Positions 4,395 through 64,000 of a DNA stretch of 64,000 bases are shown piece by piece; position 1 is the stretch's first letter; each line of letters begins with the position of its first letter. The notes under the pieces are model-generated. The model did not search any database, was not told where the DNA came from, and saw only the letters and a list, made by a program, of their open reading frames with translations. The stretch comes from Leucoraja ocellata (Eukaryota), in the NCBI GenBank assembly GCA_036785375.1, contig JAWMAR010000016.1, positions 8,060,001-8,124,000 of the forward strand, given 5' to 3'. The position numbers and the translations under genes were made by a program.

Positions 4395-4430
<36 letters not shown>
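4377..4430. repeat. (CT)n microsatellite
   Basis: Directly visible. Confidence 0.95.
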
Positions 4431-4435
<5 letters not shown>

Positions 4436-4604
4436 CCCCTCTCCCCTGGCTCTCAGTTTTGAAGAAGGGTCTCGACCTGAAGAGTCCTCTCCAAAGATGC
4501 TGCCATTCCTTCTCTCCAAAGATGCTGCCTGTCCTGTTGAGTTGCCCCAGCATTTTGTGTGTATATGTGAGGTAAACCAACATTTGCAGTTCTTTCCTCC
4601 AGCT

Positions 4605-6939: not shown

Positions 6940-8520
6940 GATGCATTCTAAGGAAAGAAACAGATAGTAGTTCAGGTTGAGAACCCTTCATCAGAACTGG
7001 GAAAAGGAGAATAAGTTGCAGAGAGGATGGTGGTGGTCGGAGAGTGGGGCTGCATGGGACAAAGGAAATATCTCTGGTAGGATGGGGGCCAGGGTTACCA
7101 TGGGCATAAGTTGTAGATCTCATTCTGTCATTGGGTTAATTGGGTGGAAAGACAGACGAAGATAGGGAATGAATGAAAGTTATGAGGTGAGGGCAATTAG
7201 AGAGTGAGAGTACAAAGGAGAGTACAGAATGTAGGACTGTAGTAGATGCCCAGCATGTCAGACTGCCCATGGGAGAAAGAACTGAGCCAATATCACAGAT
7301 GGATGACTTGCAAAATGGACAGCTCCTGTGCAGAGGAATTGGGTTTCCTGACGTTGTAAAATGTGATGTTGAGGCTGCAGTGTGCCCAGGCAGAGGATGA
7401 GATGTAATTCTGCAAGTGGGTCTTGGGCCTTGTGCAACAGGAGGCCACAGATTGGTCAGAGTGGGAGTGAGATGAAACACAAAGGTTCAGCATTGCCCTT
7501 GTGAATTGAACACAGATACTACACAAAGTGGTCACCCAACCCATGTTTGGTTTCTCCATTGTACAGAAGGACACATTGTGAACACCAAATGCAATACATT
7601 GGACTTGAAAAGGGGCCAGGGAATCACTGCTTCACTTGGAAGGACCTTTGTGTTCTTGGTTGGTGAGAAGTGAAGAGATAAAGGGACAGATTAGTCATGG
7701 CCTGCAGGAAGAAAACACCATTAGAATGGAAGTTTTTGGTGAGGCTAGAAGGGCCTTGAAGTACTGAAAGGGGAGGGAGACATTGCTGTGGTTGTGGAAT
7801 GATGTTGGAGGTGGTGGAAGCTGTGAAAGGTGATCTGTTGAATTAAGTCTGGTGGAAAGTGAGGGCCAGGGATACGTTTGTTCAGGAGGAGCGTTGGTGA
7901 TAGCAGAAACGTGGGAAATATTTGAGATGTAGTCGAGGGCTTTGTCAGCAGCGGTAGAGGAGGCAAACCTTGATTCAGAAGCAAGAAAGATAACTCGGCA
8001 GCACCAGATGTAAAGTCTTGTCATTGGAGAAAATGCAAAGAAACGGAAGAACTAGGAGAAAGGAATGCAGTCCTTGCAGGCGGCAGGGTGGGAGGAAGTA
8101 TAGTCAGGGTTTCTAAGGGCTTGTACTGAATGTTTCTCAACAATCTATCCTTTTGAGACTGATTCAAAATGGGACAGGCCGGGTCATGTGAAGGAGGAAG
8201 AGGGAGATTGCAGCAAAAGTCATGAAACATTTGTCTGAATACAGGAAGCAGCATCAGTGCAGGTGTTGATATCCGCAGGGGAAAACAAAGCCGAGGCAGG
8301 GAGTCAAATTAGGACTTAAATAAAGACTGCCTGACAAAAAAGCAGTTGTGCCAATGGTCCATGTGAGTTTCCAGAGCCACATCTTCATTCTGGAAAAAGT
8401 AAGTGGAATTGAAAAACTAGTTAACGTGAGAATTAGTTCAGCCGTGCGAATGACCCTGTTGATAAAGGGGAACTGGTTGGGTTTCTAATTAAGGAAGAAG
8501 CAGAAGGGCCTCAGTACCCC
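6940..8520 (-). mobile_element. Old, heavily decayed Penelope-like RT plus GIY-YIG region
   Basis: Remnants IQYKPLET (YYKPT-like), CIPFS, and YCIWCSQC-LLYNGETK. The terminal repeat carries a CTGATGAAGGG core near 6975-6995. Confidence 0.65.
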
Positions 8521-9624
8521 CGTGCAGTGCAATGGATGTGGATACAGCTATGAAAATGGACACCGTCAAAGTGGCAGAGGGTACCAGAGGTATCACAGAT
8601 GTAAGGGAAGGGACTGGACCAGAGGAGAACAGAGAAATGTTGGAAGGAATATGATTTTTCGAGCAATTGTAGGCATTGGTACTGCCGGGCCAAACATATT
8701 ATTTCTATTTCAGGTTTTCAGCATCTGCAGTGTTTTGATTTTCACTACCAAATGTCATTGCCTTGTGAAGTCTTGGTATCTGCAAACAGACTGACTCTCT
8801 AACATTATAAAGTGATGACATTGCAAAAATGTGGAAATTCGTGATTATTCTCTGGCTGCATTAGTGATGGGAGAAGCAGTTATCATGGAGACCAAGGAAC
8901 TGCAGATGCAGGTATACAAAAAAAGATACAAAGTGCTGGAGTGAAAGAGACAAGAAGGAATGTCTTTAGCTGGAGAGTAATGATCTGTGGAATTCATTGC
9001 CACAGACGCTGTGGAGGCCATCATTGGATATTTTTAATGTGGGGATTGACAGGTAAGATTGACAGATTAGTAAGGGCGTTAAAGGTTACGGGGAGAAGAC
9101 AGGAGAATGGGGTTGAGAGGGTAAGATAGATCAGCCATGATTGAATGGTGGAGTGGACACGATGGGCCGAATGGCCTAACTCTGGTCCTAAATTTATGTC
9201 CTTGTGTTATTCAACAGGTCAAGCAGCATCTCTGGAGAACATGGACCTGTGACCCACTGAGTTACTCCAGTATTTTGTCTTATATTTGAACAGAGTTAAC
9301 ATTTCACATGGATTATCTTTCATCAAAACCTAAAGACCATTGACCTGAAAGGCTTATGCTGTTGCTTTTTTTACGGGTGCTGTTAATTCGTTTGTGAAAT
9401 GTACCAAGTTTCTTCAGATAAATGTTGATACCAATCTTCACAAAGAGATGGTGATTCAGGTGAACTTAATGGAAGGGATAAGATACCATCTTCGAGGAGA
9501 GTGAGGCCATTCTAGATGAGAGACCTCAGGCAGCTGAACATATGCCTGCCAGTGTATGTGAGTTAAGGTAGGGGAAGCACAAAGATAAAAGTGTGTTGTA
9601 TTCCTGAAAGTTAAGGAATGAAGA

Positions 9625-10078: not shown

Positions 10079-10203
10079 TGTGGCTTTACAGTAGCTCTAC
10101 CATGATCCTACATGAAAAGTACTTAACACATGAGAAGCAAGTCACTCCAAGGAGTGTCTTTTTGCATAATATGAATAACGTCTCACAAGATACACAGTAC
10201 TTA

Positions 10204-10838
10204 CAGCAACACTTGTCCCTTTACCTCCCCCCTCGACTCCGTTCAAGGACCCAAGCAATCGTTCCAGGTGCGACAGAGGTTTACCTGCATCTCTTCCAAC
10301 CTCATCTATTGCGTCCGCTGCTCTAGATGTCAGCAGATCTATATCGGTGAGACCAAGCGGAGGTTGGGCGATCGTTTCGCCGAACACCTCCGCTCGGTCC
10401 ACAATAACCAAGCTGACCTCCCGGTGGCTCAGCACTTCAACTCCCCCTCCCACTCCGTCTCCGACCTCTCTGTCCTGGGTCTCCTCCATGGCCACAGCGA
10501 GCAGCACCGTAAATTGGAGGAACAGCACCTCATATTCCGTTTGGGGAGTCTGCATCCCGGGGGCATGAACATCGAATTCTCCCAATTTTGTTAGTCCTTG
10601 CTGTCTTCTCCCCTTCCTCAACCCCCCCTGCTGTCTCCTCCCATCCCCCAGCCTTCGGGCTCCTCCTGCTTTTCCCTTTCTTGTCCCCGCCCACCCCCGC
10701 CCCCGATCAGTCTGAAGAAGGGTTTCGGCCCGAAACGTTGCCTATTTCCTTCGCTCCATAGATGCTGCTGCACCCGCTGAGTTTCTCCAGCTTTTTTGTG
10801 TAACCTTCGATTCTCCAGCATCTGCAGTTCCCTCTTAA
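10204..10838 (+). mobile_element. Young 5'-truncated Penelope-like element with intact GIY-YIG C-terminus and terminal repeat
   Basis: ORF 10268-10594 reads NLIYCVRCSRCQQIYIGETKRRLGDRFAEH (GIY-YIG). 12-bp TSD ACACAGTACTTA at 10192-10203 and 10839-10850. Confidence 0.9.
10708..10743 (+). ncRNA. Minimal (short stem III) hammerhead-ribozyme-like motif in the Penelope terminal repeat
   Basis: CTGAAGA-A-GGGTT-TC-GGCCC-GAAACGTT gives a CUGANGA box, stem II, GAAA box and palindromic AACGTT. Penelope-like elements are known to carry such motifs. Confidence 0.7.
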
Positions 10839-12504
10839 ACACAGTACTTATCCTTTTCTATCCTCTCTGGCACATTTCAAATGCCATACACCATTCCATG
10901 ATACTCCTCATGTGCCACATTTTGATTATGATACAAAATAATCTTAAAGAAACAGAGAATGACGAAGCAGCGCCACAGCCAGACATAAAAACAGCTTTTT
11001 TTTCCACGAGTAGTAGCTCTACTCAACAGCCAAAAGTCTGTAGCCTCTTTTTACTCTGGTACTTTATCTTCACATGTTTAAATTATAATGTTTTATTTTT
11101 AATTGTCTGATTATATATTGCGTTTTTACCATGTGCACTGTGTTTTTACCATGTGTGAGCAAAGCACCACGTCAATATACATCCGTGGCTAATACATTTA
11201 TTCTGATTCTCTGAATCTAAAAGTCCTGGAGGCTAAATGTCAGAAGCACATTCCAACCTGACATGTTCTTGGGCTGATACATAATGAGACTTAATTAACC
11301 TGAAACCTGTTTTGCAACGCGTAGAATGTTTTTGACTATAAAGAGACAGAGCTCCACTCTAACAGAATCCACGGACACAACATGACACAACAAACCATTT
11401 AAGAAGAATACTTATCTTTCCTTGATTAATCTTACAAATCTATTGTGCTCATGAAAAATAATTGACATACACAAACAGCCCAAAAAAGCCCAAATGTTGT
11501 TGAATTACGTCGTAATCCTTTGACACAAGAAATGGTGCTGAACACTTGGTTAATTGTGAATGGATCAGAGAGCAAATAATGGTTAGACAAGAACTGGTTT
11601 GTCTGATGACTACAAGTGAATTTTTTGAAGAAGGTGTGAACCAGAGCTTCCACACCTCAACATTCTTTTCCTTAAATAGAATCCCAATTTCCTGGAAATT
11701 GATGGCTGAGGTGTCGGCTGGTGCTCGGCTTTCGTTGGCGCTGGAGGGATTGGCCGCAGGTGGTTCCCGGCCTGTCGGGGAGCGGGGTTAGGATAGAGTT
11801 GACCAGCTTCTCCATGCTGGCTGTGGGCCTGGGGCTGCTGGCGTCATCGGTCCAGGGTTGGCGGTTGGCCCGGCGAGAGTTGAGCTGCAGTTGCCTGAAG
11901 AATTCCATTCCTTTTCACTATTCTGCTCATTTCAAGGCAATGGAATTCTTCAGCCAAACCCATCTCAACTCCCGCTAACCAGCCAGCAGAGAGACAATAC
12001 ATGATTACAATCCATCCATCCACAGTGCACAGATACATGATAAAGGGAATAATGTGAAGAACGTTTTGTGCAAGATAAAGCCAGTAAAGTCCGATCAAAG
12101 ACAGTCCGAGGGTCTCCAAAGAGTTAGTTAGTAATTCAGCACTGAACACCTCAGCTCAGTCCGCCTAGGCTTATGCGATCTCCAGGTTGCTAAACACTTT
12201 AACTCCCCCTCCCGTACTGACCTTTCTGTCCTGGGCCTCCTCCACTGTCAGAGTGAGGTCCAACGCACATTGGACGAACATAACCTCATATTTCACTTGG
12301 GCATCTTACAATCCAGCGATATGATATTGATTTCTCTAACTTGCTTTCCCTCTGTCTCCGTCCCTCCCCACCCTAGTTCTCTGACTAGCTTCACTGTATT
12401 TCTGATTAATTTTACATTGTATACCTTATCACCTTCCCCTCAGCTAGCAATAAGCCATTCTATATTTCCTTATCGTCTGCTTTGATCTGTTGTTTTCACA
12501 CTTT

Positions 12505-13446
12505 CCGGAAGTGGCGGCGCTGGGAACGGCTGCGGCTCGCCTGCAGTCCGTTTGTCTTTTTCTTTTTTGTGTTGTTTTTTTTTCGTTGTGTCTAGTTATG
12601 TTTTTGGTTTTTAGGCTGTGTTTATGTGGGGAGGGGGGTGGGGGGTGAAACGGGGGCTGCTGTCACTCCCTTCGGGGGAATACGACCTTTTTGTCGTATC
12701 CCCCTTCTTTGCCTCCGTCTACGCTGAAGCCTAGCGGAGCCGGCGACCTCGGGACTCTGGAGGCAGCTGACAGGACTCGTCCTGGGCTCGTTCCCGGCCC
12801 AGCCCGGGATGGAACGGTGCTCCCGTGAGAGCGGCCTGGTGAGGGGCTGGAGTGGCCCAGCCCGAGGGAGGAACGGCACTCCCGTCAGAGTGGCCCAGCC
12901 CGAGGGAGGAACGGCACTCCCGTCGGAGTGGCCCAGCCCGAGGGAGGAATGGCATTCCCGTCGGAGTGGCCCAGCCCGAGGGTGGAACGGTACTCACGTG
13001 AGGGCGATCCGATCCGGGGGCTGGGACGGTGCTCCGGTGGCTGGGACGACGTTCTGGCGGCGGTGTCCAGAGTCCTGGGTTCAGCCGCGGGCCGGCGGCT
13101 GCGTGTGCTGGACTGGAGGTGCGGCGGCTTCGACCACCCCGGGCCGCAGTGTTTGAACCGGCCCGTTCGCGGGGCTCGGTGAGCTGCGGGACTGTTTGTA
13201 CCATCGCCCAGTGGGGAATCGCCTCAGCGCAGAGGGAGAAGAGGGAAGAGACTGCAGCCCTAAGATTTTTGCCTCCACCACAGTGAGGAGGTGTTTGGAG
13301 GACTCACTGTGGTGGATGTTAATTTGTGTTTATTGTTGTTTATTATTGTATCATTGTATGTATGACTGCAGGCACGAAATTTCGTTCAGACCGTAAGGTC
13401 TGAATGACAATAAAGGAATTCAATTCAATTCAATTCAATTCAATTC
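12505..13446 (+). mobile_element. GC/CpG-rich non-autonomous retroelement with (CAATT)n tail
   Basis: Inserted in a Penelope repeat and non-coding. It ends in tgacaataaa plus (CAATT)n, like the Rex1-type 3' end at 16897-16940. Confidence 0.7.
12849..12996 (+). repeat. 38-bp tandem repeat, about 3.8 copies
   Basis: GGAGTGGCCCAGCCCGAGGGAGGAACGGCACTCCCGTC at 12849, 12887, 12925 and 12963. Confidence 0.95.
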
Positions 13447-13577
13447 ACCTTACCCTTCCATATCCCTGGACTCCCTCTCCCCTGACTCTCAGTCTGAAGA
13501 AGTCAAAACGTCACTCATTCCTTATCTCCAGAGATGCTGCCTGTCCCGCTGAGGAATTAAACTCCAGCATTTTGTGT

Positions 13578-13872
13578 TGAACAGCTGGGAAGAAACTATC
13601 CCTGAATCTGGAGGTGTGTGTTTTCACACTTCTATACGTTTTGGCTGATGTGGGGGGGGGGGGGGGGGCGAGAGAGGAGGGAGTGATCAGGGTGTGACTC
13701 GTCCTTGATTATGTTGCTGGCCTTGCCCAGGTATTGTGAGGTGTCAATGGAAGGGAGGTTGATTTGTGTGATGGCCCGGGCTGCATCCACAATTCTCTGC
13801 CATTTCTTGTGGTCTTGGATGGAGCTGTTCCCACACCATGCTGTGATGGATCCTGATAAAACACTGCATGGC
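13578..13872 (-). mobile_element. Rex1/Babar LINE 3' fragment
   Basis: SVLSGSITAWCGNSS...QRIVDAARAIT...IIKDESHP. Confidence 0.75.
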
Positions 13873-15062
13873 ACAGTAGTTTCATTAAAAACTCATTCAA
13901 AACAGTGTCTCAATCTTCTCGCCGTGACCGCTGAAAACCAGCACAGAATCACTCCCTGGAGCTGGAGTAACTCTTGTTTCTTGGTTTCCTGGTCCTCCAA
14001 AAAAATTCCAAATGGAATTTAAACGGGAGTGGACTCACCACCACCAAGCTCCAAACTCTGAAAAATCACAGTTTATTGCACTTTATCTGTTTATTTATTG
14101 TGTATATATATATATGGTTTATGGTATATAGACACACTGAACGTTTATCTCCTGTTCTGTATTATGTTTACATATTCTGTTGTGCTGCAGCAAGCAAGAA
14201 TTTCATTGTCCTGTCTGGGACACATGACAATAAAACTCTCTTGACTCTTGACTTGGACTTAAGCAAAAAAGTGTTCTTGGGAAATAAGAGCTACCTTAAA
14301 TTTAATTGCGTCTGATTGGGTACCTGTGGTAGGGTGAAGACTATTCCATGCTCTAATTGTGCGGGGGAACCCCATGGAGCAGCCAGCGACTCTGGATAGA
14401 AGAAATTGGGTGACGTTTCGGGTAGAGACCCTTCTTTAGATTTCCTCTGGTTTTAATTAGTTTAATTTAAAGATACAGTGTGGAAACAGGCCCTTCGGCC
14501 CACCGAGTCCATGCCGACCACCGATCACCTGCACACTAGCTCTATCCCACAACGCAAGTCAAGAGTGTTTTATTCTCTCACGTCCCAGTTAGAACAATGA
14601 AATCCTTACTTGCAGCAGCACAACAGAATATGTAAACATAGTACTCTGTAAACAATGTTATAAACAAAAAAACAAAACAATGTATATTTATATATGCATA
14701 TAAATTCTGCACCTATTTTCTATTTTCTATGGGTCTGAAAAAGGTTCATGTACACCTTCGGAATGTGGAAGGAAACAAGAGCACCCGGAGAAAGCCCATG
14801 CGAGCAAAGGGAAAAGGAGCAACCTCCATACAGGCAGCACCCATATTCAGGATCAATTCCGGGTCTCTGGCAATTTTAGGCAGCAACTTTATGGCCAATG
14901 TACTGCCCCATAGTCTTGAACTGAATTGAAACATACAGTCGCTGTAAAGGGAGACATAGCATCACTTAGAGATTTAAGACTGAAAATGGATAGTTTCTTT
15001 TTTTTAATCAGTAACCAAAGTTATCAACGTATAATTTTTTTGTGTGTTGGAAAATAAAATAT

Positions 15063-15295
15063 AGTGGCACAGCTAGTGGACTTGGTGCCTCACATGCCAG
15101 AGATCTGTGTTCGATCCTGTCCTCGGGCACTGTCTGTGTTGAATTTACACATTCTCTCTGCAAGCGTGTGGGTTTCCTCCCACATCCCAAAGACGCATTT
15201 GTAGGCTTTGTAGGTTAACTTGTCTCTGTAAAATTGCCCCTAATCTGTAGGGAGTGGGTGAGGAAAGTGGGATAACAGATCTTGTGTGAATGGGT
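15063..15295 (+). mobile_element. tRNA-derived SINE (HE1/V-SINE-like)
   Basis: A-box (GTGGCACAGCTAG) and B-box (GTTCGATCC) followed by the body shared with other copies in the window. Confidence 0.7.
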
Positions 15296-15419
15296 AGGCA
15301 AAAATCCTGGAGAAACTCAGCGAGTGAGGCAGCATCTATGGAGCGAAGGAAATAGGTGAAGTTTCGGGTCGAGACCCTTCTTCAGACTGATGTGGGGTGG
15401 GGGTGGGGGGGGGGGGGGC

Positions 15420-15967
15420 AGAGGCTCAAATCCTTCGATGTGCGCAATGATATGCTGTACATGTTTTACAATACTGTGGTTGCAAGTGTCTTTTTTACGC
15501 TGTTGTCTGCTGGGGCAACAGCATCAGTGCGCAAAACAACAGGAAGCTGGACAAGGTGGTGAAACGGGCTTGCTCAGTGCTGGAGGGGAGAGTGGACTCT
15601 GATGGATGTGCTTGAGAGGTGTATGAGGCGCAAGGTGCAGGCCATCCTTGACAACTCTGGGCATCCACTCCATGTAATTCTGGAGAGTCAAAAGTGCACT
15701 CGGAACAACAACCGGCTCCTCTCCCTGCCCTGTAGAACGGAGCGGTTCAGGAGATCCTTCACCCCTGCAGCCATTAGATTTTATAATACGGGGGATGCTT
15801 TTTGGATTTTTAAAAAATGGTTCATTATTGGTCTTTTTAAGTATTTATTGCTCTCGGGTATTGTCCACATTGTATTTTATGTATTTTCTGTCGGCGTTCA
15901 TTTTGAATGTGTGGGTTTGTTGGTTGGGGGCTTCTGGACCTGAATTTCCCTGAAGGGATCAATAAAG

Positions 15968-16002
<35 letters not shown>
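15420..16002 (+). mobile_element. Rex1/Babar LINE 3' end with (ATT)n tail
   Basis: MFYNTVVASV, ILDNSGHPLH and CRTERFRRSF, then aataaag plus (ATT)n. Confidence 0.8.
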
Positions 16003-16003
<1 letters not shown>

Positions 16004-16425
16004 GGGCAGCGGATGCAATAGATGAGGTTGGAGGAGCTGCAGGTGAACCCGCACCTGGAAAGACCGCTTGGGTCCTTGAATGGAGTCAAGGGGGAGGTAA
16101 AGCAACAAGTGTAGCATTTCCTGCAGTTGCAAGGGAAAGTGCCAGGAGAGGGGGTGGTTTGGGTGGGAAGGGACGAATTGACCAGAGAGTCATGGAGGGA
16201 GCGGTCTCTGTGGAAAGCCGACAGGGGAGGAGATGGGAAGATGTGGCCAGTGGTGGGATCCTGCTGGTAGACAAAGATGGAGAAAATCATCGGGTGAGGC
16301 ATAATCTATGGAGCGAAGGAATAGGCGACGTTTTGGGTCGAGACCCTTCTTCAGACTGATGTTGGGGGGGGGGGGGGTGCGGGAAAAGGAAAGGAAGAGG
16401 CGAGGACAATAAGTTGTGGGAGAGC
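16003..16425 (-). mobile_element. Penelope-like fragments
   Basis: PGTFPCNCRKCYTC...SSNLIYCIRC plus the terminal repeat. Confidence 0.8.
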
Positions 16426-17897: not shown

Positions 17898-18349
17898 TGT
17901 TGGTTAATTGTTTGTCTTGGGTTTTTTTCTTGTTGTAAAACTGCAGAAACCAAATTGAACTTCAAATGACAATAAATGGTATTGTATTGTGTTCCTGTCG
18001 TGACTGGGATAACAGCAACACAATTGACTCTGAGCACAAGGTCTGTGGTAGATTGAATCTGGAATTTGTTGTGAACTGACTAAAGAAGGGTCCCGACCTG
18101 AAGCGTCATTTATGCATTCCCTCCGCAGATGCTGCCTGACCCACTGAATTACTCCAGCACTTTTGAGTTTTGCTCAAGAATCCAGCACCTGCTGTTTCTT
18201 GTGTTTGTCACAAACTGTGGTACCACTTGCAGTGTATGAGATACATCACACGAGGGTGGTGTTTCCATGCAGTGTATCCAATTCTGTGACTAATTTGCTG
18301 TTGCACGGAGTGAATGGGCAACATTTTGCTTCATTGCGGCTTTGATTTG

Positions 18350-19600
18350 CTCCTACTCTAATCAACCTGAGCAAGCTCCTGTCTAATACCATCAAAGTAG
18401 GCCATGCCCCAAGTCAGAATTTTAACTTGTGGGCCCACCATGCCTTTATCCATAACTATTTTAAAGCTGATAAACAGTGGTTACTGGTCCCAATGTCATG
18501 AGAGCAGATCAAGCTTGCCCTCCCCTTTGTAGGACCCTCTACATATACCCTGAGGAAACCTCCCTGAACACATTTGACAAATTCCACTCCGTCTAAGCAC
18601 TTGGCACTATGACAAACCCAGTCTATATTGGGAAAGTTAAAATCCCCTACAGTGACAACCTTATTAGTCGTGCAGCTGCCTGCAATCTCCTGGCATATTA
18701 GTTCTTATAATTCCTGTTTACTATTTAGGGGGGTCTGTAGTACACTCCAACAAGGTGAGCATCCCCCTTTTATAGTTCAGCTGCACCCATACAACCTTCA
18801 GTAATGTCATTTTGGACAACCGCCATGGCATTCTCCTTAAAGCAACATTCTCCTCCCCAAATAGACACAAAATGCTGGGGTAGCTCAGCAGGACAAGCAG
18901 CATCTCTGGAGAGAAGGAATGGGTGACGTTTTGGATTGAGACCCTTCTTCAGACCGAGAGTCAGGGGAGAAGGAATCGAGCTATGGAGGGTAAGGTGCGA
19001 AAACGACAGATCAAAGGGGACAAGGTTGAAGGAAAATGTATTTACCACTTCATTCCCTTTGATATCTCGTTTTCACATCCTAGCCTTCCATATCTCTTGT
19101 TTTCCTCTCCCCTGAATCTCAGTCTGAAGAAAGGTCTCGACACGAAACGTCACCCATTCCCTCTATCCAATGCTGCCTGTCCCGCCGAATTACTCCAGCA
19201 TTTTGTGTCTTTCTTCGGTGTAAACCAGCATCTGCAGTTCCTTCCTGCACCTCTTCTCTTCACCTCTCTTACCCCCAGGTCTATCTCTCCTGTAGCACCT
19301 GTACCCTGAAAGATGAAGCTGCCAGTCCTGTCCCTTTCTTAGCCAAGTGTCCATAACATCCACAGTCGCACGTACCTATCCATGCCCTGAGTTCATCTGC
19401 TTTACCCATCAGGCTTCTTGCATTAAAATAAATGCAATCAAATCCGACAATCCTATCTTGCTCCATGCCGTGCTCCCGTCTATTCTATCCACTGGCCATT
19501 CTTTCATCACCTTCCAGCCTCTCACCTGCATCGAAATCGACCCCCACATCCCCTTCCCTCCGCCAATCTAGTTAAAACCCAACCCTGTAGCAATGAAAGG
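18350..19600 (-). mobile_element. Decayed CR1 endonuclease region interrupted by a Penelope fold-back unit (about 18860-19250)
   Basis: CIYFNARSLMGKADELRAWI and a GDFNFPNIDW-like remnant flank an inverted pair of terminal repeats. Confidence 0.7.
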
Positions 19601-20160: not shown

Positions 20161-23100
20161 TCAAATTGGCGTGCGATACTAAATGATCGAATGACACGAA
20201 GATAGTAATCAAGTTCAAGGGGAAAAGATCATCTACTTTGATGGGGATACGTGGGGAATGTTGGTGAGCTGGAAAAGACTCATGGAGTTACTCCATTCCC
20301 TCTGCACATATCATTCACAGAGGACAGTGAACAAAGCAGAACTGTCACATCCAAAATGAAAATACTGATACTATTATTACTGTAGTAGTAAGATCGAGAC
20401 AAATTAGATGCTATTGAGTTTATTAAGGCCAGAACCAGTGATGGAGATGCTTATGTGTTGTAGGATTATTTGATCTGGCACTTTCAGAGATGTTCACAGT
20501 CACTTATTTGATGTAGGTCGGCATAGGCAAGATGGGCTGAAAGGCCTCTTTCTCTGCTACATCACTCTATTTGCAGCCAGGCGCCAAAACAAATGCTTAA
20601 TGACAGTTTAAAGACAGTGGCTGGAAGCAGTAGCTTTCTGACCCTCGTGGACTGGGATTGTTTGGTTTGCAGGCCGGCAAGACAAGCTGCTTGGCATATT
20701 GGAGGGGGTGAGCAGAATAGCCACGGCATGGAAACTCTTTTGAAGAATGTGAAAGCGTTTTGTTCTGGACACAAGCATGAGGTGCAGGCTGGGAGCAAGT
20801 CTTGTGTTGGCAAATGGCAGCACAATCTCCTTTGCAGATGCTTCCTAGAGATGCTACAAGTGATTTTGGTCTCCAGAGATGGGACGTCTGCAAGTCACGT
20901 GGGTACAAAAGTGGCGGACCTTGCTATGGTCACAGCAGAAACCATGCGGCCTGAACGCCTACTCAGAATGTCCCTCTGTTTTAGTTATCACTGAACAGGG
21001 CATATTGCACATGTGCGCCAGTCCCACAAGAAGGTAACTGCATAGGGTGGTCCCCACTTGACCGAGATACCGGCGAGAAAAGGTGAAGAAAAAGTATGGA
21101 TGGTCTGCCTTTGAAAGACCATTCATGCCCTGAAATTGGAAAGCAGTCCGGCAGAGGCAGTCTAAAGGAAGAATATACCATCTGAAGTAGGAAGTGTGGA
21201 AATGTTTCTTGAAATGCAGGGATTTGTAGTGATGACTGTTGCAGTGTTTGATTGCAAAAGTTGTCTATTACTTGTTGCAAGTTTGGACGGACTGATATTG
21301 ATTCAGATATATTGAAGCCAAGATGCAGAAAAGGAAGGTGAGATCCATGGTGGTAAGTGACAGGCACTGCAAACCACTCAGAAAAAACAGCAAACAGTTC
21401 AGTCCGAAGAAGGGTCTCGACCCGAAACGTCACCCATTCCTTTTCATCAGAGATGCCATGCCTGTTCTGCTGAGTTACTCCAGCTTTTTGTGTCTTTCTT
21501 CAGTTTAAACCAGCATCTGCAGTTCCTTCCTACACATTCCTAAACTGTTCAGATCTTGGGTTCAACCCCAGTTTGGTGCCCCATACTCCCAGTTCCCTCT
21601 TCCTTTACTTTCTCCTAGTCCAGGCCTAAAGGTCCCCAGCATGTACGAACTCCATACACACAGAACTCATAGTCAGGATGGAACCCCGGTCTCTGACGCT
21701 GTAAAGCAGCAACTCTACTGCTGCGCCACCCTGATATGGTGCTCCTGTGGTAAATGTGGCTTTCCCTGTAGCTTACACCCAGTGAGAATCCTGCTGCTTC
21801 ATTCTCAGCTGTCGCGTGAAAATTCTTAGACACAGAGCAACTGTAGGGCAATAAAAGCATAATATATGCCGGTGTCTAGCAACCAGCTGAAAGGAAATGT
21901 GGAAGTGACAGTGGAAATGGGTATTTATAGGAGGGGAGATTGATTGTAAATAGTTAACATAGTGCATCCCTGCTGTTCTCCATATCGATGTAAAAAGATA
22001 ATCCATTCGATTCTACTGATCCCTGAGCCAAACAGTGTTGAGTATGGACAACTTGTAGGATCTGATACCCGGCAACAGGGTGATTCACCACACTCAGACT
22101 TTGCAGAAGGTCAGAAGAAGGGTGTGTGGAATGAAAGCAGGGAACATCTTGTCTGCAGCCATAAGCAAATGCCACAGTATTGATGCAGGTATCCCAAAAG
22201 TGCAGAGAACTGGCAGTGCTGAAAGTTAAAAGTCGTTTGTAAACGTAACCAAGATGAATAGTCATGCAGTGGATGTAGGAAAATTGTTAGATTTAGTCCA
22301 ATTCCATACAATAAATAAACACATTTTATTTGCATCTGTCAATTGTTTCAGTAGAAATAAGAGAATAAGGTGTCATTAGGAGTCAAGGCAAGTTGATTTG
22401 ATTGTCATTCGCACAAGTACAGTGAGGTGCAGGTTCAATGAAAACCTTAATAAAAAGGAATTGCAGATGCTGGTTTATACCAAAGATAGACAGAAGACGA
22501 TGGAGTAACTCAGCGGGTCAGGCAGCATCTCTGGAGAAAATGCATGGGTGACATTTCAGGTTGGGACCCTTCTTCAGACCATCTATCCATTTTCTCCAGA
22601 GATGCTGCCTGTCCTGCTGAATTACTCCACCATTTTGTGTCTAACGATGACAATCTTGCTTGTAGCAGCATCGCAGGCACAGAGTCTCAGAGAGCACACA
22701 AAAACATAAATGATACTTACATTTATAAATAAGGCACTGTGCAGTTTGGGGGGACTGGTTGCCAAAGTCCAGAACTGTCTTGTAGCACAATGTGGCCAAT
22801 CTGTAGATTAATAAGTTACTTCAGTTACTCATTTGTCCATTGGTGGGTTACATGCGTATACCTATAGGAAGTCCATTTACTTGCTCAAAGAGTTTCGTAC
22901 TTGATTGTTGGAACCAATTGCAATGCCCAGCTGGCAGGGATTGAACTTGAGATGGCTTGTATAGGTTGTTCATGGAAATGTTAGGCTAGCAGGGATGTGC
23001 TAAACATTACACCAGCAATACTGCCCTAATTGGTGAGTCCCCAGTTATCGGCCACTGTAGTTTAGTTTATTGTCACGTGCATCGCGGTACAGTGAAATTG

Positions 23101-24724
23101 TCGCGTGCTATCCAGTCAGCAGAAAGACGATACACAATTACAATCGAGCCATTTACAGTGTACAGATACATGATTGGGGAATAACTTTCAGTACAATGTA
23201 AAGCCAGCAAAGTCCGATCAAGGAAAGTCTGAGGGTCACGAAAGAGCTAGATAGTAGCTCAGCACTGCTCACTGGTTGCGGTAGGATGATTCAGTTGCCT
23301 GATAACAGCTGGGAAGAAACTGTCCCTGAATCTGGAGGTGTGCGTTTCCACACTTCTCTACCTGTTACCTAATGGGGGAGGGGAGAACAGTCTATAGATG
23401 ATAGATAATAGACCGCTTCCAGCATCTCAGCAGCCGTCTCTCAGTGAAGGCAGACCCTGATGATGAAAGGATGACCAAGGACGGTAGGGCTGTGTGGGAG
23501 GCCTGGCTAGTCCGCTGCACAACCGAGAAACCTGGCTGAAGAGGGAAGCCGCCGAGCCCGGCCCCTGAGCACCAGAGAACCGGAGAGGAGGCTGGAGGGA
23601 GTCGGCCATGACAAAGGGCTGGTGAAAGGAACAGGGCTCTTACCTTCCTCACCCTCAAGGTTGGCTACAAGCGGCGCCCCTGGGGCTCGAAGGCTGAATG
23701 GTGGCCTGGCGAGGAGAGGGCCGATGGCTCGCTGGGTGATCTGGATGGAGATGACGGCTGTAACAAGACAATGTCAGCTGTAGCTTGGACTTTGAAAATT
23801 GCACCAAACCTGGCGAGTCTTGTATATGGTCTCAGTCAGTCAGCTATTTCTATACACGTGGTTTTGATCTGGGATTGTGCTTATGGTATAGTAATAATTT
23901 ATTAACTGTATGCAAAAAATGTCACTGTACCTTGCTACATGTGATAATAAAGTAGCATTGAACCATTGAAATCTACCACCACTTTCAAAGAGCAGTGTGT
24001 GTGTGTATGTGTGTGTGTGCATGCATAGTTAATTTATAGGTGGTAGACAAAAATGCTGTGGGTGCAGCAGCATCTATGGAGAGAAGGAAATAGGCAATGT
24101 TTTAGGCTGAAACCCTTTTTCAGATTGTATGCAATTCATAGTTGATTTAGTTAATTGAGAAAAATGTATTTGAAGATCGAGACCAGATCTGAAATGAAGG
24201 TTTTCTACTGGGCTGCCGTGATCCCTGCCCTGCCCCATGCTTCTGAGACCTGGAATATACACAGCAGGCATCTCAAAACACACATGCTCTGTCATGAATG
24301 AATGAATAAGTTTATTGGCCAACTATTCACATACAAGGAATTTGCCTTGGTGCTCTGCCCGCAAGTGACAAAATGACATGCAGTGACAGTTAGGAATGAA
24401 TTAGCAGGGAATGGGATGGATAACAGTTATGGGAAGGAATTAGCAGGGAAACAGTGAAAAGGATTCAAGATTGTACACAAAGCTTCCTTGAGAATACCTG
24501 AGAATCCCTGGCCCAGAGTGGAAAAGAAACATTAGGGCTGACGTTGAGATCTTGAGGCCATTCATTGGGAGCACATGAATGTCCTGTGTTAGCACGAGCC
24601 CCACAAACTACCCAGTCACTATTTCCCATAGCCACCTCCTGCCCCATCTGGGGAAGAGTCTCTGGCTCTTACATTGACCTCAAAACCTGCAGAACCAGAA
24701 TGGAAGCAAACCAAAGACTTTGAC

Positions 24725-25685: not shown

Positions 25686-25989
25686 TGGCACTGTCCCACT
25701 GTATGAGTTCATTGTAGAGCTCCCGAGTTTGCCCTGATTCGAACTTGGAGATTTACGGTAATGGCCACTCGTAGGTACTCGGGGCTCTCGTGGACATTTT
25801 TCAAAATCTTCACGAGCCTTCGCGAGCTTACCGCGTTTCCCGAGTACCTGCCGTTAGCGTTACGAGCCACTGAGAAACGTCCCGAGCTCTGACGTACCCA
25901 CTACGTACATTCTACGTGCTTCCACGAGTTTGATTTTTTTTTAAACTCGGGAGAGCACTTGAATGAACTCGTACAGTGGGACAGGGCCA
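25686..25989. mobile_element. PIF/Harbinger-like MITE
   Basis: TIR TGGCaCTGTCCCACTGTAtGAGTTCATT...AATGAACTCGTACAGTGGGACAGGGCCA, flanked by GTA/TTA, inserted in a LINE tail. Confidence 0.75.
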
Positions 25990-27936: not shown

Positions 27937-28149
27937 GGAATGAACTGCAGATGCCTGATTAAACCAAAGATAGACACAAAAAGCTGGAGTATCTCAGCGG
28001 GTCAGACAGCATCTCTGGAGAAAAGGAATAGGCGACTCTTCGGGTGGAGATCCTCTCAGTCTGAAGATGGGTCTCGGCCTGAAACGTCACGCATTTATTT
28101 TCTCCAGAGATGCTGCCTGACATGCTGAGTTACTCCAGCTTTTTGTGTC
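27937..28149. mobile_element. Penelope-derived fold-back unit
   Basis: Inverted terminal-repeat pair. TSD AACCTACAARCCTGTA at 27921-27936 and 28150-28165. Confidence 0.8.
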
Positions 28150-29539: not shown

Positions 29540-29894
29540 TCTGTAGGAAGGAACTGCAGATGCTGGTTTACACCGAAGATAGACACAAAATGCTGGAGCA
29601 ACTTAGCGGGACAGGCAGCATCTCTGGATAAAAGGAATGGGTGATGCTTTGGGTCAAGACCCATCTTCAGGCTGAGAATTAGGGGTCAGGGAAACGAGAG
29701 ATATGGAAGGTAAAGTGTGAAAATGAGGCACCAAAGGAGACGAAGGGGAAAAGACTCTACATTTTCCTTGATCTTCGTCCCCCTTTGATCTCTCAGTCTG
29801 AAGAAGGGTCTCGACCCGAAACATCACTCATACCTTCTATCCAGAGATGTTGCCTGTCCCGCTGAGTTACTCCAGCTTTTTGTCTCTATCTCCC
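29540..29894. mobile_element. Penelope-derived fold-back unit in APOBEC2 intron 1
   Basis: Inverted pair with TSD GTAAAACCTAA at 29529-29539 and 29895-29905. Confidence 0.8.
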
Positions 29895-31740: not shown

Positions 31741-32526
31741 ACTGAGTATTTATTGGATTGAGTGTCAGTTCTACAGCTGGTGGAGCTGCTGCCTGACGGC
31801 ATCAAACACCCAGGTTCAATCCTGACCTTGGTTGCTCTGTGTGAAGTTGCACGTTCTCCGTGACTGCGCGGGTTTCCTGAGTGTGATCTGGTTTCCCCAC
31901 ATCCCAAAATGTGCAGATTGTAGGTTAATTGTCCTCTATAAAATTGTCCCTAGTATGTAGGGAGTGGATGCCAAAATGAGATAATATGGAACTAGTGTGT
32001 ACGTTTGATCCATAGTCGGCATGGACTCGGTAGGCCAAAGGGCTTAGAGTCATAGATTCATAGAGTGATACAATGTGGAAACAGGCCTTTCAGCCCAACC
32101 TGCCCTCACCGGCCAACATGTCCCAGCTACATTAGTCCCACCTGCCCACATTTGGTCTATATCCCTCCAAACCTGCCCTATCCATAAACCTGTTTCTTAA
32201 ATGTTGGGATAGTCCCTGCCTCAACTACCTAGCTTTGTCTGAAAAAGTTATCCCTCAGGTTGCTATTAAATTTTTTCCACTTCACCTTAAATCTATGTCC
32301 TCTGGCTTGTTTCCTGGCATGCTGCATCTTTCAACCAATCAATGTGTCAGTATGTTCAAATAAATATTGAATATTAAATTAATATTTGAATATTAAATAG
32401 GGACACAAGATGCTGGAAGTTTGAGCATAAAACAAAATTCTGGAGGAAAGGAGTGTGTCAGGAAGCATCTGTGGAGCGAATGAAAAGATGACGCTTTGGG
32501 TCAGGACACTCCTAGACTGGTTGAGT

Positions 32527-34611: not shown

Positions 34612-34817
34612 GTTTAAGAAGGAACTGCAGATGCTGGAAAATCGAAGGTACACAAAAATGCTGGAGAAACTCAGTGAGTGCAGCAGCATCTATGGAGCGA
34701 AGGAAATAGGCAACGTTTTGGGTCTGAAGAAGGGTTTCGGCACAAAACGTTGCCTATTTCCTTCGCTCCATAGATGCTGCTGCACCCGCTGAGTTTCTCC
34801 AGCATTTTTGTGTACCT
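34612..34817. mobile_element. Penelope-derived fold-back unit
   Basis: Near-perfect inverted arms with a 16-bp TSD TCCCTCCAAACCTTTT at 34596-34611 and 34818-34833. Confidence 0.85.
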
Positions 34818-46240: not shown

Positions 46241-49200
46241 TGTTACCCTAATGTGCCAAATGTCCTTTGTTCCTGTACGAATGGATGCCTCAGTTCCAAC
46301 AGATTTTGTCCACTGTAATAAAATATGTTTTAAAGAGGTCTGTAATAACGAGGATTAACTGTAGTCTCAAGGCCTGCAGTTAGTTACTATTTCAAGATCA
46401 CAGTTTGAAAAGTAATTTCATTTCATCGAAAACTTAGATTTAAGATAGTCTGCTTTATTTCCCCCCCTGTAAATGTTTTTCTTGCTCATCATTTTTATTA
46501 AAAAAGGCAAAATACATAATAAAAATTGGTAGTAAAAAGTATTAAATGCAACAATTATTTTGTATGTAGACAAAAGTGCTGGAGAAACTCAGCAGGTGTG
46601 GCAGCATCTAAGTAGCGAAGGGAATAGGCAACGTTTCGAGCCAAAACCCTTCTTTAGATGATAATTCTTCATAACCCTTATCATGATATTGCATGAAACA
46701 ATTTCATAAAGTTGAGGCCAACAAATGATTTCACCTGTTGTTGGTGCGCTCAAAAAAAATTTGTATTTTGTGCTCCAACCACATAAGGTTCCCCTCATAA
46801 TAGGGAACTGGGAATAGCTCAAGCAAAGCCATGAACCTATGCTACGTACCAGTGTTTTCCCACATGAGGTTTCTCCGAGATCTTCGGTTTCCTCCCACAC
46901 TCCAAGATGTACAGGTTTGTAGGTTAATTGACCTGGTATGTGTAAATTGTCCCTAGTGTTTGCTAATGGCATTAATGTGGAGGGGTCGCTGGTCAGTGCA
47001 GACTCGGTGGGCCGAAAGGCCTGTTTCTCTAAACTAAACAAGTCTTGATTTTCTTTGAAAAAATCAGCTGTGTCAGCTTTTGCAGGGTGAAGAGTCCAAG
47101 GAATGAAATACTGCACACCAGGGCAATCCAGGCAGCACTACAATGAGGATGGAAGCTGTTTCAATTATGCGGGAGGAAAGAGCTGTCTGCAATCGGCACC
47201 AATTTAATCCACGTATAACTATCTGGCCAGGAACATTTAGCAAATAAGTGTGTGATTCTGCACCTAGAAATTAATCTGCTCGCAAACAAACAAAGACTAA
47301 TTTCACCCATCATGGATAATGTGCTAAGGCACTGCTGCTTGTCTGAGCCTGGATGTCACATGTTCAAACCTCATTTCAGAGACTTCAGCACTTCAAATTT
47401 TAGTGCAATCCGAAGAACATTTCTGCATTGTCAAAATTTAAACAACTCTATTTGTGCTCTCATGTGACCATAACTCAATGCAAGTTCAACGAACAGCAAG
47501 GGACTTGGAGTCCTGACGGATATTCACACTAATAATCACAATCAGAATTAGTCCACAGAACATAAGTCAAAAGCCCTGCTTGCTAAACTCTACCAACATT
47601 GTCTATTAACTGTTATATGTAAATAACTGCGTATTACTTCTCTTTATTATAGAGTATTCAGTGCTTTCAAAGCCAAATACTTCAACTCCATTTGGCGCAG
47701 TGGGACCGGGGAAGAGAAACCAAACTCATATATTTTATTTCACTTGGACTGAACTGAGAGAGTTGCTTTCGCTTCTCATCGTGCATCACAAGTTTATTGA
47801 ACATGTTCTGATCGTCTTCTACTTCAGTTCATAGATGGTAGCTAAAGTGATATGTTCCAATGAAGAGAAAGTTCTAAGCTATCCAATAATGAGCGGAACA
47901 TTTCATAGTGTAGGTTTGTAATAAGGTAATAAAAAGTTGTTTCAGACATAGAATGCCAATGTAGTGAATCTTATTGCGCTTATTTTAGTATCCAAAATAC
48001 ATCCTGCTACTTTGTGCCGTACAATAAAACATTGGCTGTATTTTTGTGCTGCTCATTTCTTTCATTTGAAGTGCAAATGTCTCTGCAGGCATCTCATCTC
48101 CAAAGACCAATCATAACTAAAATTTTAGAACCCTGATTTCAGGATTCCCAATAGGATAGAAATGAAAATCCTATGATCTACAAAAAAGTGAATTTCACAC
48201 CTGATCGATAACCAACCTGTTCAGATGATTAACTTTATACCGCCTGTACAACATCCAAGGTGGACGTAAAAAGCTGGAACAGCTCAGTGGGTCAGGCTAC
48301 ATCTCTGGAGGAAAGGAAAAGGTAATATTTCAAGTCGAGATCCTTCTTGAGACTGAGTCATGCAGAGGGAATCGAGAGATACGAAAAGTTACAGGGAACA
48401 AATGAATGAAAGGTATGCAAAAGGACAAATCAAAGCTAGCAACAATGTTCAAAGAAAGGTGGAGCCGCATTGCTCCATCGTTGGCTGTGGAGGTGATAGC
48501 GAGTGATACAGTGAAATTAAGCAGGACAACAGTGAGTTATAGTATAACGCCTGTAATTATTATGTTAAAATTTTTTCAGATTATAACGTAATAATAAGGA
48601 CAATAATATTGCAAGGATAACCAAGATTATGGGTAGTGATATTTGCTCTTTGTTACTCTGTTATGGACCTGTGAGGTTCACTATGCTGGTCCAGTTGCCT
48701 TGGAATAAATACGTTACAAATTAAAAATATTTGATTGATTTCGGGTGGCCTGTTGTGTATCCCAACAACCAGATGAAACAGAAACAGCTGTTGTTAAGGA
48801 GGTTCACCAGGGCACACATCCATGACTGTCAAATAAGATTTCAATCAAGAATTTTGTCATCGGAGCACATTAAGAGTGTTTCTTAACCTACAAAAAATAA
48901 AGATACAGTTGATTTGTTCTCTTGCAAAGAACAAAGGATGAGTGATCAAGCATGTTAATATCAAAAACCCTGGTTGGCAGAGAATGATGTGTGGATGTAG
49001 AGGCAGGTGTCTTCCTCCGTCACCCTAGTGAGACAAAAGACAAACTGGGGAACCTTGTATTCTGCTTGGGTAGCTTGCAATTCAATGGCATGAATATTCT
49101 CCTACACCACCTTTCCCTTGCACACAAAAAAAAATGCTTAAGAGGGACAGGCCCATAAGCATTCAAGTCTGGAAAGGAATAATATATATAGGCAGATACA

Positions 49201-55539: not shown

Positions 55540-55789
55540 CTGCGCAAGAAAAGCCACTAACTATTAATCAATCAGACAATTTCATTAACTCTAATAGTAA
55601 TGCTAATAGCAAGTGACATTAAAGAAAGCGGAGACACAAGAAACTGCAGATGCTGGAATCTTGGCCGAAATCATTCTGGAGGAACTCAGTGGGTTAGGTA
55701 TCATCTGTAGAGGAATGGCTGGACAATGTTGAGTCAGGACCCTTCATCAAACTTCAGGTCTGACAAGGGGTATTGACCCATTGCAAAAC

Positions 55790-56495: not shown

Positions 56496-57020
56496 CAAGA
56501 TCAAAAGCCAAACTGATAACTTAATCACACGGTAGCAGTGAAGATATTTTTATAATGCTTCTTTTAAATTCTTGAAATTGCTCAAGGCTGAAGACTGAAA
56601 TTAGATCTTGAAGTGCTGTCAGAGTAGCCTTGGTGAGTAACTGGAGTAGTGGAGGACTGGCCAAATTTTGTACCTTCCACCACAGTGATGAATGCTGTGG
56701 TGGATGTTTGTGTTCAATTTTTATTGTGTTTTGTGTTTTCTTTATCATTGTACCGCTGCTGGCGAATTCATTTCACTTGCACTTTATGTGCAATGTGACA
56801 AATAAAACTGCTAAACATAATGCAGCCAGTGCGCAGCAGTGATGGAGGGAATTAGTGTTTGCGGACAACAGACAGTAATCTTCAGTAGGAAGAAACTGCA
56901 TTTGCAGGTTTAAACCAAAGATAGACACAAAAAGCTGGAGTAACTCAGCAGGACAGGCAGCGTCTCTGGAGAGAAGGAAACGGTGATGTTTCGGGTCGAG
57001 ACCCTTCTTCAGACTGGATT

Positions 57021-59044: not shown

Positions 59045-59564
59045 CTGTGAAGCAACAAAAACAATTATTGTATTTTTTTTCTTGGTCTGCTTACGAACAC
59101 AAGAAACAGAAGCAGGATTAGGCTATTTGGCCCATTGTGCTTGCTCTGCATTCAAGATCCTTTACTTCAGCACTGCTTTCCTGCACTATACTAAAACATC
59201 TACAATTCTTGAATAGTCTTTAAGACGCTCAGTAACTGAGCCTTCATGGTCCTCTTGAATAGTGAATGCCAAACGATTAGCTATCCTCCGAGTGAAGAAC
59301 TTCCTCATTTGAATGGCTGATCCCTTAGTGTGAGGTTCCTCAGATGCTGAGGAATATCACGATTTACCTCATTGTTCTAAACTCAAGTCTAGGCTTGGTC
59401 ATTTTATTCAACTCATCCAACTTTGGAAATAAAGATGGGCAAGTCAGAATAGATCCATAATTGATTTGAGTACAGTCTGAACACCGATTTTCCGGCACCC
59501 TCGGTTCCAAAGCCTTCCTGGATTATCCTTTTTTCTGAATCAACAGGGGTCACATGATAATGAG

Positions 59565-59940
59565 AGGAAGGAACTGCAGATGCTGGTTTACACCGAAGAT
59601 AGACATAAAATGCTGGAGTAACTCAGCGGGACAGGCAGCATCTCTGGAGAGAAGGAATGGGTTTTGAGTCAGACTGAGAGGCAGGCGAGAGGGAAACTAG
59701 AGATATGGAAGGGTACAAAGAGCAGGTAAGGTGTGAAAAGGACAGAACCAAGAATGATCAAGGAAATATACAAAGGTTCAACATTGGCTGAGGAGAAGCC
59801 GACAACGAGGCAAACAGTAAAATTAATCAGGAGGACAATGAATCTGGTAGGATAACTAGGGTGGGAGAGGGACAGAGAGAGGGGGAAAGCAAGGGTTACA
59901 AAGTTATAGAGAAATCAATATTCATACTGTTGGATTGTCA
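59565..59940 (-). mobile_element. Penelope-derived terminal repeat
   Basis: ggaactgcagatgctggtttacaccgaagatagac... shared with other copies. The ribozyme-like core is deleted. Confidence 0.75.
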
Positions 59941-60214: not shown

Positions 60215-60418
60215 TTTAAGAACTGCAGAAGCTGGAAAAATCGAGGGCAGACAAAAATGCTGGAGAAACTCAGCGGATGAGGAGCGAAGGAATAGGTGAT
60301 GTTTTGGGTCGAGACCCTTCTTCAGATTGAAGAAGGGCCTCGACCTGAAACGTCACCTATTCCTTCGTACTATAGATGCTGCCTCACCCTCTGAGTTTCT
60401 CCAGCATTTTTGTCTACC
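60215..60418. mobile_element. Penelope-derived fold-back unit in an OARD1 intron
   Basis: Inverted pair with TSD CAAGAATTTGG at 60204-60214 and 60419-60429. Confidence 0.85.
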
Positions 60419-63520: not shown

Positions 63521-63549
63521 CCACATCTACTCTATGACAAGCAAAGATT

Positions 63550-63805
63550 GTAGGAAGGAACTGCAGGTTCTGGTTTTCACCGAAGATAGACACAAAATGG
63601 TGGAGTAACGCAGCGGGACAGGCAGCATCTCTGGAGAGAAGGAACGGGTGATGTTTCAGGTCGAGACCCTTCTTCAGACATATCTCTCGTTTCCCTGTCC
63701 CCTGACGCTCAGTCTGAAGAAGGGTTGCGACCCGAAACACCACCCATCCCTTCTGTCCAGAGATGCTGCTGTCCCACTGAGTTACTCCACCATTTTGTAT
63801 CTTCA
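63550..63805. mobile_element. Penelope-derived fold-back unit
   Basis: Inverted pair of terminal repeats with cores at about 63650-63677 (-) and 63714-63741 (+). Confidence 0.8.
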
Positions 63806-64000
63806 TCTTCTTGATCCGCGGCGACGGGGTCACTACTTCGTGGAGCCAGGGAACGGGCTCCATCCATCTTGCCCACAGTTATCGTGTGAGAGCTAACTTT
63901 GTTGTATTTTTTTAATTTCGTTCACTTAGTTTTTTTTTTGTTTTTTAAACGCGTCGATTATTCCCGACCGAAGATAAGACGCAAAACATGCTGGAGTAAC

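Follow-up and report, generated by a model that had tools for sequence, protein, structure and literature searches.

Minimal hammerhead ribozyme motifs in the pseudo-LTR of an abundant, likely Neptune-type Penelope-like element family in a skate genome window

Minimal hammerhead motifs are known from metazoan Penelope-like elements (PLEs), and massive dispersed sets of them have already been published; descriptor searches counted about 4,000 for the coelacanth and about 9,000 for Xenopus tropicalis (PMC4209133). The consensus described there consists of CUGANGAH, G10.1-C11.1, GAAA, a palindrome, UH and a pyrimidine-rich 5' side, and a helix I of 2 bp is also tabulated for Drosophila virilis, Culex and Oikopleura (PMC4209133). 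The motifs in the 64-kb stretch of skate DNA analysed here (the window) share with these hammerheads the type I topology, an extra base after A9, G10.1-C11.1, the lack of a loop 3, a palindromic 15.2-16.2 and the location in a pseudo-LTR, as well as the occurrence mostly as dispersed singles from truncated elements, as nearby opposite-strand pairs and in thousands per genome (PMC4209133). With a helix II of 4-5 bp and a helix I of 2 bp, the skate motif lies at the short end of the range in PMC4209133, and its raw density in this one window, about one core per 2.3 kb, includes decayed copies, unlike the descriptor counts of that study.

Multiple related systems have been described. The Poseidon element PAc of the green anole shares the pseudo-LTR hammerhead, the two 3' ends that define a tail and the uncut RNA template, and its priming on both strands would explain the skate pairs (PMC11167929). 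PAc differs from the skate element in belonging to the Poseidon clade, which lacks the zinc-finger linker, and in having an ORF that begins at stem II (PMC11167929); in the skate family, no conserved ORF start could be located. Neptune and Nematis elements share the C-terminal GIY-YIG domain with CCHH, the CX2-5CxxC linker, partial tandems and an inverted 5'-truncated copy with a 30-40 bp tail on one end; in contrast to the published elements, the window is without a full-length ORF (PMC8557442). In Penelope of D. virilis, the promoter and start site lie in the pseudo-LTR, the start site 46 nt before a 75-nt intron (PMC2377424) that ends at the 5' edge of helix I (PMC4209133). The skate motif has a polypyrimidine tract and CAG at that position, a counterpart recognised by its sequence pattern. 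Non-LTR retrozymes also carry type I hammerheads in PLE-related non-coding repeats, as tandem units of 170-400 nt with typically canonical motifs (PMC7229834, bioRxiv 10.64898/2026.07.22.740005), and have been reported in one chondrichthyan (bioRxiv 10.64898/2026.07.22.740005). The skate units, unlike these, are dispersed, minimal and tied to PLE coding ends. No account of PLE hammerheads in sharks or skates was found in a literature search that lay outside subscription papers, Repbase, Dfam and some supplements, and a term search found no shark or skate names in the supplements of PMC4209133, as far as these were accessible. The kind is already known, and the find mainly extends PLE hammerheads to skates.

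It is highly probable that the motifs are minimal type I hammerheads in the pseudo-LTR of an abundant Neptune-type PLE family of a skate-like batoid, and that the copies are mostly truncated, neutrally decayed insertions from uncut RNA, the ribozyme having been selected in master elements. Homology, anatomy and decay were read from the window, while the transposition steps are modelled on published work on other PLEs. The motif at 10712 lies in an insertion in which the endonuclease end, the 3' UTR, the hammerhead, the pseudo-LTR remainder and the tail follow in this order:

10204..10838, plus strand: 5'-truncated, likely Neptune-type Penelope-like insertion, by target duplication and tblastn (E ~1e-50)
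10204..10594, plus strand: C-terminal GIY-YIG endonuclease coding piece, stop at 10592-10594
10595..10709, plus strand: pyrimidine-rich 3' UTR ending in a short palindrome, function presumed
10742..10805, plus strand: pseudo-LTR remainder to the short 3' end, by alignment of 35 copies
10806..10838, plus strand: optional tail of about 33 nt, in 16/35 copies

The insertion is flanked by an exact 12-bp target duplication (10192-10203 and 10839-10850) and matches proteins with a reverse transcriptase (RT) and a GIY-YIG domain at the above E value. The translation of 10204-10594 contains the CxxC and two His of the PLE CCHH motif, and the ORF 10175-10594 matches PF01541 with an E value of 8.5e-4 and 20 bits, under the cut-off of 22.6. 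The relatives of this ORF include 26 longer proteins at E <1e-10, several of which have an RT and then a GIY-YIG domain. The top relatives are from Leucoraja erinacea, with 74% identity (over 99%) and 86% identity; others come from Rhinoraja, Mobula, Hypanus and sharks, with ray and shark PLE proteins at 60-70% identity. The nearest named relatives thus belong to skates, and a skate is the probable host on this evidence as well. The Penelope origin proposed in the initial annotation is supported by this protein homology and by the Penelope-specific insertion anatomy. The motif does lie downstream of the GIY-YIG ORF, not directly behind it as had been stated, but after a pyrimidine-rich spacer of 117 nt that follows the ORF end at 10594.

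The PLE coding pieces within the window, such as an RT piece at 8529-8312 (minus), are partial; no full-length element or ORF, and no RT-endonuclease continuity with the motif, was found in the 64 kb. PLE endonuclease or RT relics are located at 2773-3051 (minus), 3703-3897 (plus), 7369-8529 (minus) and 12141-12371 (plus), with no recognised intact motif adjoining them. A further relic lies at 16002-16302, and CNCRKCYTC, a CX4CX2C linker, is present in the ORF piece 16266-16006. A related linker was observed in seven of the eight named relatives checked, the eighth having CxxCxxxF. A CX2-5CxxC linker before the endonuclease marks Neptune and Nematis (PMC8557442), and Neptune is preferred over Nematis because the sampled vertebrates are reported to hold Neptune and Poseidon PLEs. 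On the linker motif and these clade occurrences, Neptune is the likely clade of the element.

In subfamily A, one ATG-less frame runs open across the entire pseudo-LTR and the tail; this frame is shifted in subfamily B:

29542-29673, 56884-57015 and 63549-63680, minus strand: open frame across pseudo-LTR and tail, subfamily A

A search for the ORF start with the read-through peptide found 15 proteins, two of them named from Rhinoraja longicauda, and none matched the partial PLE ORFs of the window. The skate gene models P0033, P0041, P0001 and P0002 read through the repeat or its endonuclease piece, probably as annotation artefacts or exonisation. In the zebra shark protein P0009, one of the 26 proteins searched, a related motif is read through after the GIY-YIG domain, which indicates that the arrangement is not restricted to skates.

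The hammerhead of this insertion can be divided as follows:

10710..10741, plus strand: minimal type I hammerhead, by sequence, feature table and published consensus
10710-10711 with 10740-10741, plus strand: helix I, 2 bp
10712-10718, plus strand: CUGAAGA
10719, plus strand: extra A
10720-10723 with 10728-10731, plus strand: stem II, 4 bp
10732-10735, plus strand: GAAA
10735-10738, plus strand: ACGU palindrome
10739, plus strand: U after which the cut is predicted

Judged by their sequence features, the motifs are minimal PLE hammerheads, and the identity first assigned to them agrees with the published consensus of these elements. The fit of the 10712 copy to the metazoan consensus extends to the extra base, to G10.1-C11.1, to the palindrome and to the pyrimidine-rich sequence on the 5' side. 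The CUGANGA and GAAA core and the UH triplet are found in 10712 and in all four subfamily majorities, and every copy with an intact first core has the extra base after A9. Among 21 copies, helix II is paired in 94% of cells and the 2-bp helix I, as short as the shortest published cases, in 83%. Stem II, previously drawn with 5 bp and a 2-nt loop, is better described as 4 bp with a 4-nt loop. The 10712 motif has the ACGU palindrome and no loop 3, so that helix III can form only between two molecules. ACGU self-pairing is kept in 13 of 21 copies and broken in 8, mainly through CpG loss. No match to the Rfam hammerhead families was found window-wide, nor on 10650-10850 at E <=10.

All 27 motif positions listed in the initial annotation (11 plus, 16 minus) coincide with a copy, 26 of them within 3 nt and the one at 6975 within 8 nt. 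When the 28-nt core of 10712 was scanned without gaps along the window, 22 copies matched at <=8 mismatches, compared to a mean of 0.01 and a maximum of 1 in 100 dinucleotide shuffles. A profile built from these 22 copies gave 47 matches at E <=10 and 35 at E <0.05 in the window, 27 of the 35 with the core, and nothing better than E 3.2 in the reversed window. The 35 family pieces make up 5.7% of the window. A covariance model from 21 copies gave 28 matches, 21 of them by construction, and added a core-deleted copy near 59670. A fixed-spacing pattern search, which had a wrong spacer, gave a single match unrelated to the motif and was discarded. The motif opens a repeat of 95-135 nt (pseudo-LTR and tail), which extends 65-105 nt past it. 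The other copies are the following:

15293..16394, minus strand: direct-repeat arrangement around a PLE ORF piece, both hammerheads damaged
18860..19250: head-to-head pair, cores 18952 (minus) and 19124 (plus), tail on the plus arm
22452..22646: head-to-head pair, core 22577 (minus) with tail, plus arm from about the cleavage site
27939..28149: head-to-head pair, cores 28059 (minus) and 28061 (plus), 16-18 bp target duplication
29544..29892: head-to-head pair, cores 29670 (minus) and 29798 (plus), 15-17 bp target duplication
34614..34817: youngest head-to-head pair, core 34724 (plus), exact 16-bp target duplication
60220..60418: head-to-head pair, cores 60325 (minus) and 60327 (plus), 14-bp target duplication
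63549..63807: head-to-head pair, cores 63677 (minus) and 63714 (plus)
9209..9280: short head-to-head remnant without cores or tails
4426..4595, plus strand: solo copy, core 4459 damaged, adjoins a (TC)n run
6948..7002, minus strand: old solo copy, core 6994, CUGAUGA form
13444..13588, plus strand: solo copy, core 13494, stem II deleted
14333..14440, minus strand: solo copy, core 14439, begins 1 nt ahead of the core
18080..18204, plus strand: solo tailed copy, begins at the core
21399..21535, plus strand: solo tailed copy, core 21404, 11-bp target duplication
24038..24124, minus strand: solo short copy, core 24123, 13-16 bp target duplication
32400..32520, minus strand: old solo tailed copy, damaged core near 32517
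46566..46658, minus strand: solo short copy, core 46657, begins 1 nt ahead of the core
48250..48381, minus strand: solo short copy, core 48351
55634..55753, minus strand: old solo tailed copy, core 55750
56884..57016, minus strand: solo tailed copy, core 57012
59562..59740, minus strand: solo tailed copy with internal core deletion, upstream boundary approximate, beyond the 27 listed

The arrangement at 15293..16394 consists of a pseudo-LTR (core 16354), the ORF piece 16266-16002, which is interrupted at a (TAA)n run by a foreign insert, the insert itself and a second pseudo-LTR (core 15385) on the same strand, 969 nt apart from the first. The arms of the pair at 34614..34817 are 77 nt long and 97% complementary, and those at 60220..60418 are joined at the palindrome just before the core. 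Copy 14439 is enclosed by an 88-nt inverted repeat, 85% complementary, at 14159-14644.

The family has two 3' ends, and the tail of about 33 nt was called by a strict probe, as a looser local alignment had over-called three copies. In seven of the eight head-to-head pairs the tail is on exactly one arm (P ~0.007 for the seven under independence); the eighth, the remnant pair, has none. Target duplications of 11-18 bp above the 99th percentile of the background were observed in 7 of 14 insertions tested, namely in four of seven pairs and three of seven solos. An inverted copy with a one-sided tail of 30-40 bp is a published PLE signature (PMC8557442), and the protein of the anole element extends both strands and initiates at two internal sites that define the tail (PMC11167929). 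We infer twin priming, with one strand per initiation site and the cDNAs joined head to head. In such a mechanism, the element protein would nick both target strands, and reverse transcription would be initiated within the RNA, at one of two sites that lie about 95 and 130 nt beyond the core. Early termination of most cDNAs would yield pieces of 100-250 nt, and the priming of both strands, one per start site, would result in a head-to-head pair with a tail on one arm and a target duplication of 11-18 bp. In active masters, the hammerhead would be under selection; its fold would require a dimer formed through ACGU, and cleavage would probably be slow and assisted by protein. Integrated copies would derive from uncut RNA and then decay neutrally, largely through CpG loss at G12 and the palindrome.

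Long hairpins of -100 to -225 kcal/mol are predicted for the head-to-head pairs. The near-perfect 77-bp hairpin at 34614-34817 scores 61 bits against mir-559, with a cut-off of 95; it is a likely source of false microRNA calls and possibly of double-stranded RNA if transcribed. The microRNA matches at 34.7 kb were rejected as the inverted pair, at 30 bits or more below the gathering cut-offs.

The decay of the copies is extensive. All hammerhead features together are present in one of the 27 copies, 28061 failing only by a G-U closing pair; the views that most copies are mutated and that 10712 is the best preserved were both borne out. Pairing is found in 87.5% of 168 cells in 21 copies, compared to 8-48% for slid partners. 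Covariation of the stems, a test suggested in the initial annotation, was not recovered, the score of 0.220 being reached by 385 of 500 shuffles and a two-sided change occurring in one of eight pairs, in a test to which one window of closely related subfamilies gives little power. The stem changes are one-sided and G-U only. At CpG positions of the core, 7 of 19 cells differ, compared to 12 of 234 elsewhere, and G12 and the palindrome, which sit in CpGs, are the fastest-decaying positions. Excess conservation of the core, which had also been predicted, did not reach significance among the copies of subfamily A, where the core had 3 non-CpG changes (6.9 expected, P 0.09) and the stems had 6 changes (5.6 expected; 8 copies, 14439 left out). 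Between subfamilies, the four hand-sorted majorities differ at 0 of 11 core positions and at 12 of 54 flank positions (P ~0.06), and where they differ within the motif, the change either preserves pairing as G-U or still conforms to UH. Two earlier comparisons of core and flank, one across 23 copies (5.1% against 11.1%, P 0.005) and one across 9 copies (6 against 15.7), were set aside as confounded by subfamily mixing, selection of copies on the core and one non-homologous flank; with 14439 left out, significance is lost. The integrated copies show no clear selection and are, nearly all of them, dead relics of a ribozyme that was probably once selected. Of the large ribozyme-derived population proposed earlier, the derivation stands, but not a population of working ribozymes. 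Selection on the hammerhead in master elements is probable, with modest confidence, from the sequence comparisons.

It is also conceivable, though rather unlikely, that the hammerhead is vestigial even in the masters, and that its sequence is retained for a role other than cleavage, as a signal for a promoter, for splicing or for protein binding. The shrinkage of helix I to 2 bp, the lack of covariation and the derivation of copies from uncut RNA would fit such a role, as would the finding that ribozyme mutants had no effect on the insertion of the anole element in vitro (PMC11167929). The folding is also poor, with competing folds: the hammerhead dimer of 10712 has -7.1 kcal/mol against -25.0 for the best dimer, and its monomer fold, not a hammerhead, has -6.7 kcal/mol, in a nearest-neighbour model that ignores the tertiary core. 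A full hammerhead was absent from seven longer monomer folds, and a conserved downstream structure was unsupported, with a consensus energy of -0.11 kcal/mol (13 tailed copies). The active dimer is thus predicted to be energetically disfavoured. This is in line with the weak activity of PLE hammerhead motifs as dimers (PMC4209133) and with the protein-assisted cleavage in the anole element (PMC11167929), and such weak-fold motifs do cut elsewhere, with protein help or as dimers. Moreover, none of the four subfamily majorities has lost a catalytic position, G10.1-C11.1, the palindrome or UH, which speaks against a vestige and for a ribozyme selected in the masters.

The 5' ends of the copies were compared in 25 core-bearing copies (28059 and 32517 left out). 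Thirteen have no family sequence past about 8 nt upstream of the core, with an upstream matching run of 0-8 nt (median 2), eleven extend at least 30 nt upstream of the core and one is ambiguous. This clustering has P values of 6e-6 (12/24 copies) and 6e-4 (7/14 solos), calculated with a background of 0.12 per 8 nt that is a hand estimate from longer copies, with an 8-nt window picked after viewing the data and with copies found by their cores. It provides a lead to a 5'-end hot spot at the hammerhead edge, not at the cleavage site: at most one of 35 pieces begins at the predicted cleavage site, which indicates that the templates were uncut, as in the anole element (PMC11167929). The hot spot falls on a palindrome of 9 nt whose sequence is also compatible with an initiator and with a splice acceptor (polypyrimidine plus CAG); among the long copies, 7 of 12 have the initiator pattern and 9 of 12 have YAG. 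The aligned copies were inspected by eye for a common spliced first exon preceding the short copies, and none was seen; a narrow literature check found no description of such a hot spot. Annealing at the palindrome would explain the pairs, not the solos. If a start site were located at the hot spot, the short copies would be run-off products. As a tentative proposal, which we regard as possible but doubtful, the 5' edge of the hammerhead may be a defined RNA end, either because transcription starts at the initiator-like palindrome or because a splice acceptor is processed there. As reverse transcription by the Penelope protein begins inside the RNA, the first pseudo-LTR of the transcript would then give a strong-stop-like run-off cDNA of 100-135 nt, integrated alone or as the second twin-primed arm. 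If this is true, skate genomes would contain some 10^5 to 10^6 hammerhead units with precise boundaries, a fossil archive from which the start site, the two initiation sites and the priming of both strands in Penelope transposition could be mapped.

The same 13 of 25 copies that begin within about 8 nt of the core, 7 of the 14 solos among them, and the target duplications in three of seven solos tested could also be read as an independent non-autonomous element, SINE-like or retrozyme-like, of 100-135 nt with its own 5' end, mobilised in trans by the Penelope protein. This is improbable, as short and long copies share subfamilies and even one pair, and the long copies continue into PLE coding sequence. 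Furthermore, retrozymes are tandem, whereas no tandem array of the unit was found among 17 tandem-repeat rows (periods up to 500) and same-strand spacings of the motif are 946 nt or more. It is very unlikely that the host uses many of the genomic copies as functional ribozymes or that they are hairpin RNA genes: the high density, the one intact copy, the long hairpins of the pairs and the one pair that scores against microRNA models point in this direction, but only one of 27 copies is intact, the core and stem counts of subfamily A given above do not depart significantly from expectation, and the microRNA scores fall well short of their cut-offs. In addition, the nearest same-strand neighbours are about 0.95 kb apart with both partners damaged, and opposite-strand cores are unable to pair as two ribozymes in one transcript. 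An unrelated repeat that resembles a hammerhead by chance, to which the missing Rfam match and the short stems might point, is scarcely credible, given that the motif sits in the pseudo-LTR of a PLE, a location in which hammerheads are regularly found, and has every feature of the published consensus.

For truncated PLE insertions in a skate genome, whose size we take to be about 2 Gb, the density in this one window would correspond to about a million relics, of which some tens of thousands would be intact at 1 in 27. The skate genome would be a very large sample for the one-sided tails, the 5'-end hot spot and the question of cut RNA as a template, and copy 10712 could serve directly as a natural substrate in a cleavage assay. 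The roles of PLE hammerheads and the mechanism of PLE integration are described as open (PMC11167929, PMC8557442).

The window is vertebrate DNA and also contains LINE pieces, CR1-like ones among them, one piece of a Tc1-like transposase and an exon resembling APOBEC2; the LINE classes were named from our own reading of the translations. The LINE piece at 17 kb also matches the ALKBH8_N profile, probably spuriously. These further features are:

39120-39654, plus strand: APOBEC2-like coding exon with a splice acceptor just ahead, APOBEC-2 being the best solved-structure match (E 6e-63)
50025-51140 (plus), 45750-46247 (minus), 17068-17961 (minus) and 5458-5904 (plus): open LINE reverse transcriptase pieces
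52455-53098, minus strand: Tc1/mariner-like transposase fragments in two frames
38525-38977, 25685-25990 and 4003-4089: inverted-repeat elements, MITE-like by shape
12849-12999 (38 nt, 4 copies) and 36459-36633 (57 nt, 3 copies): minisatellites
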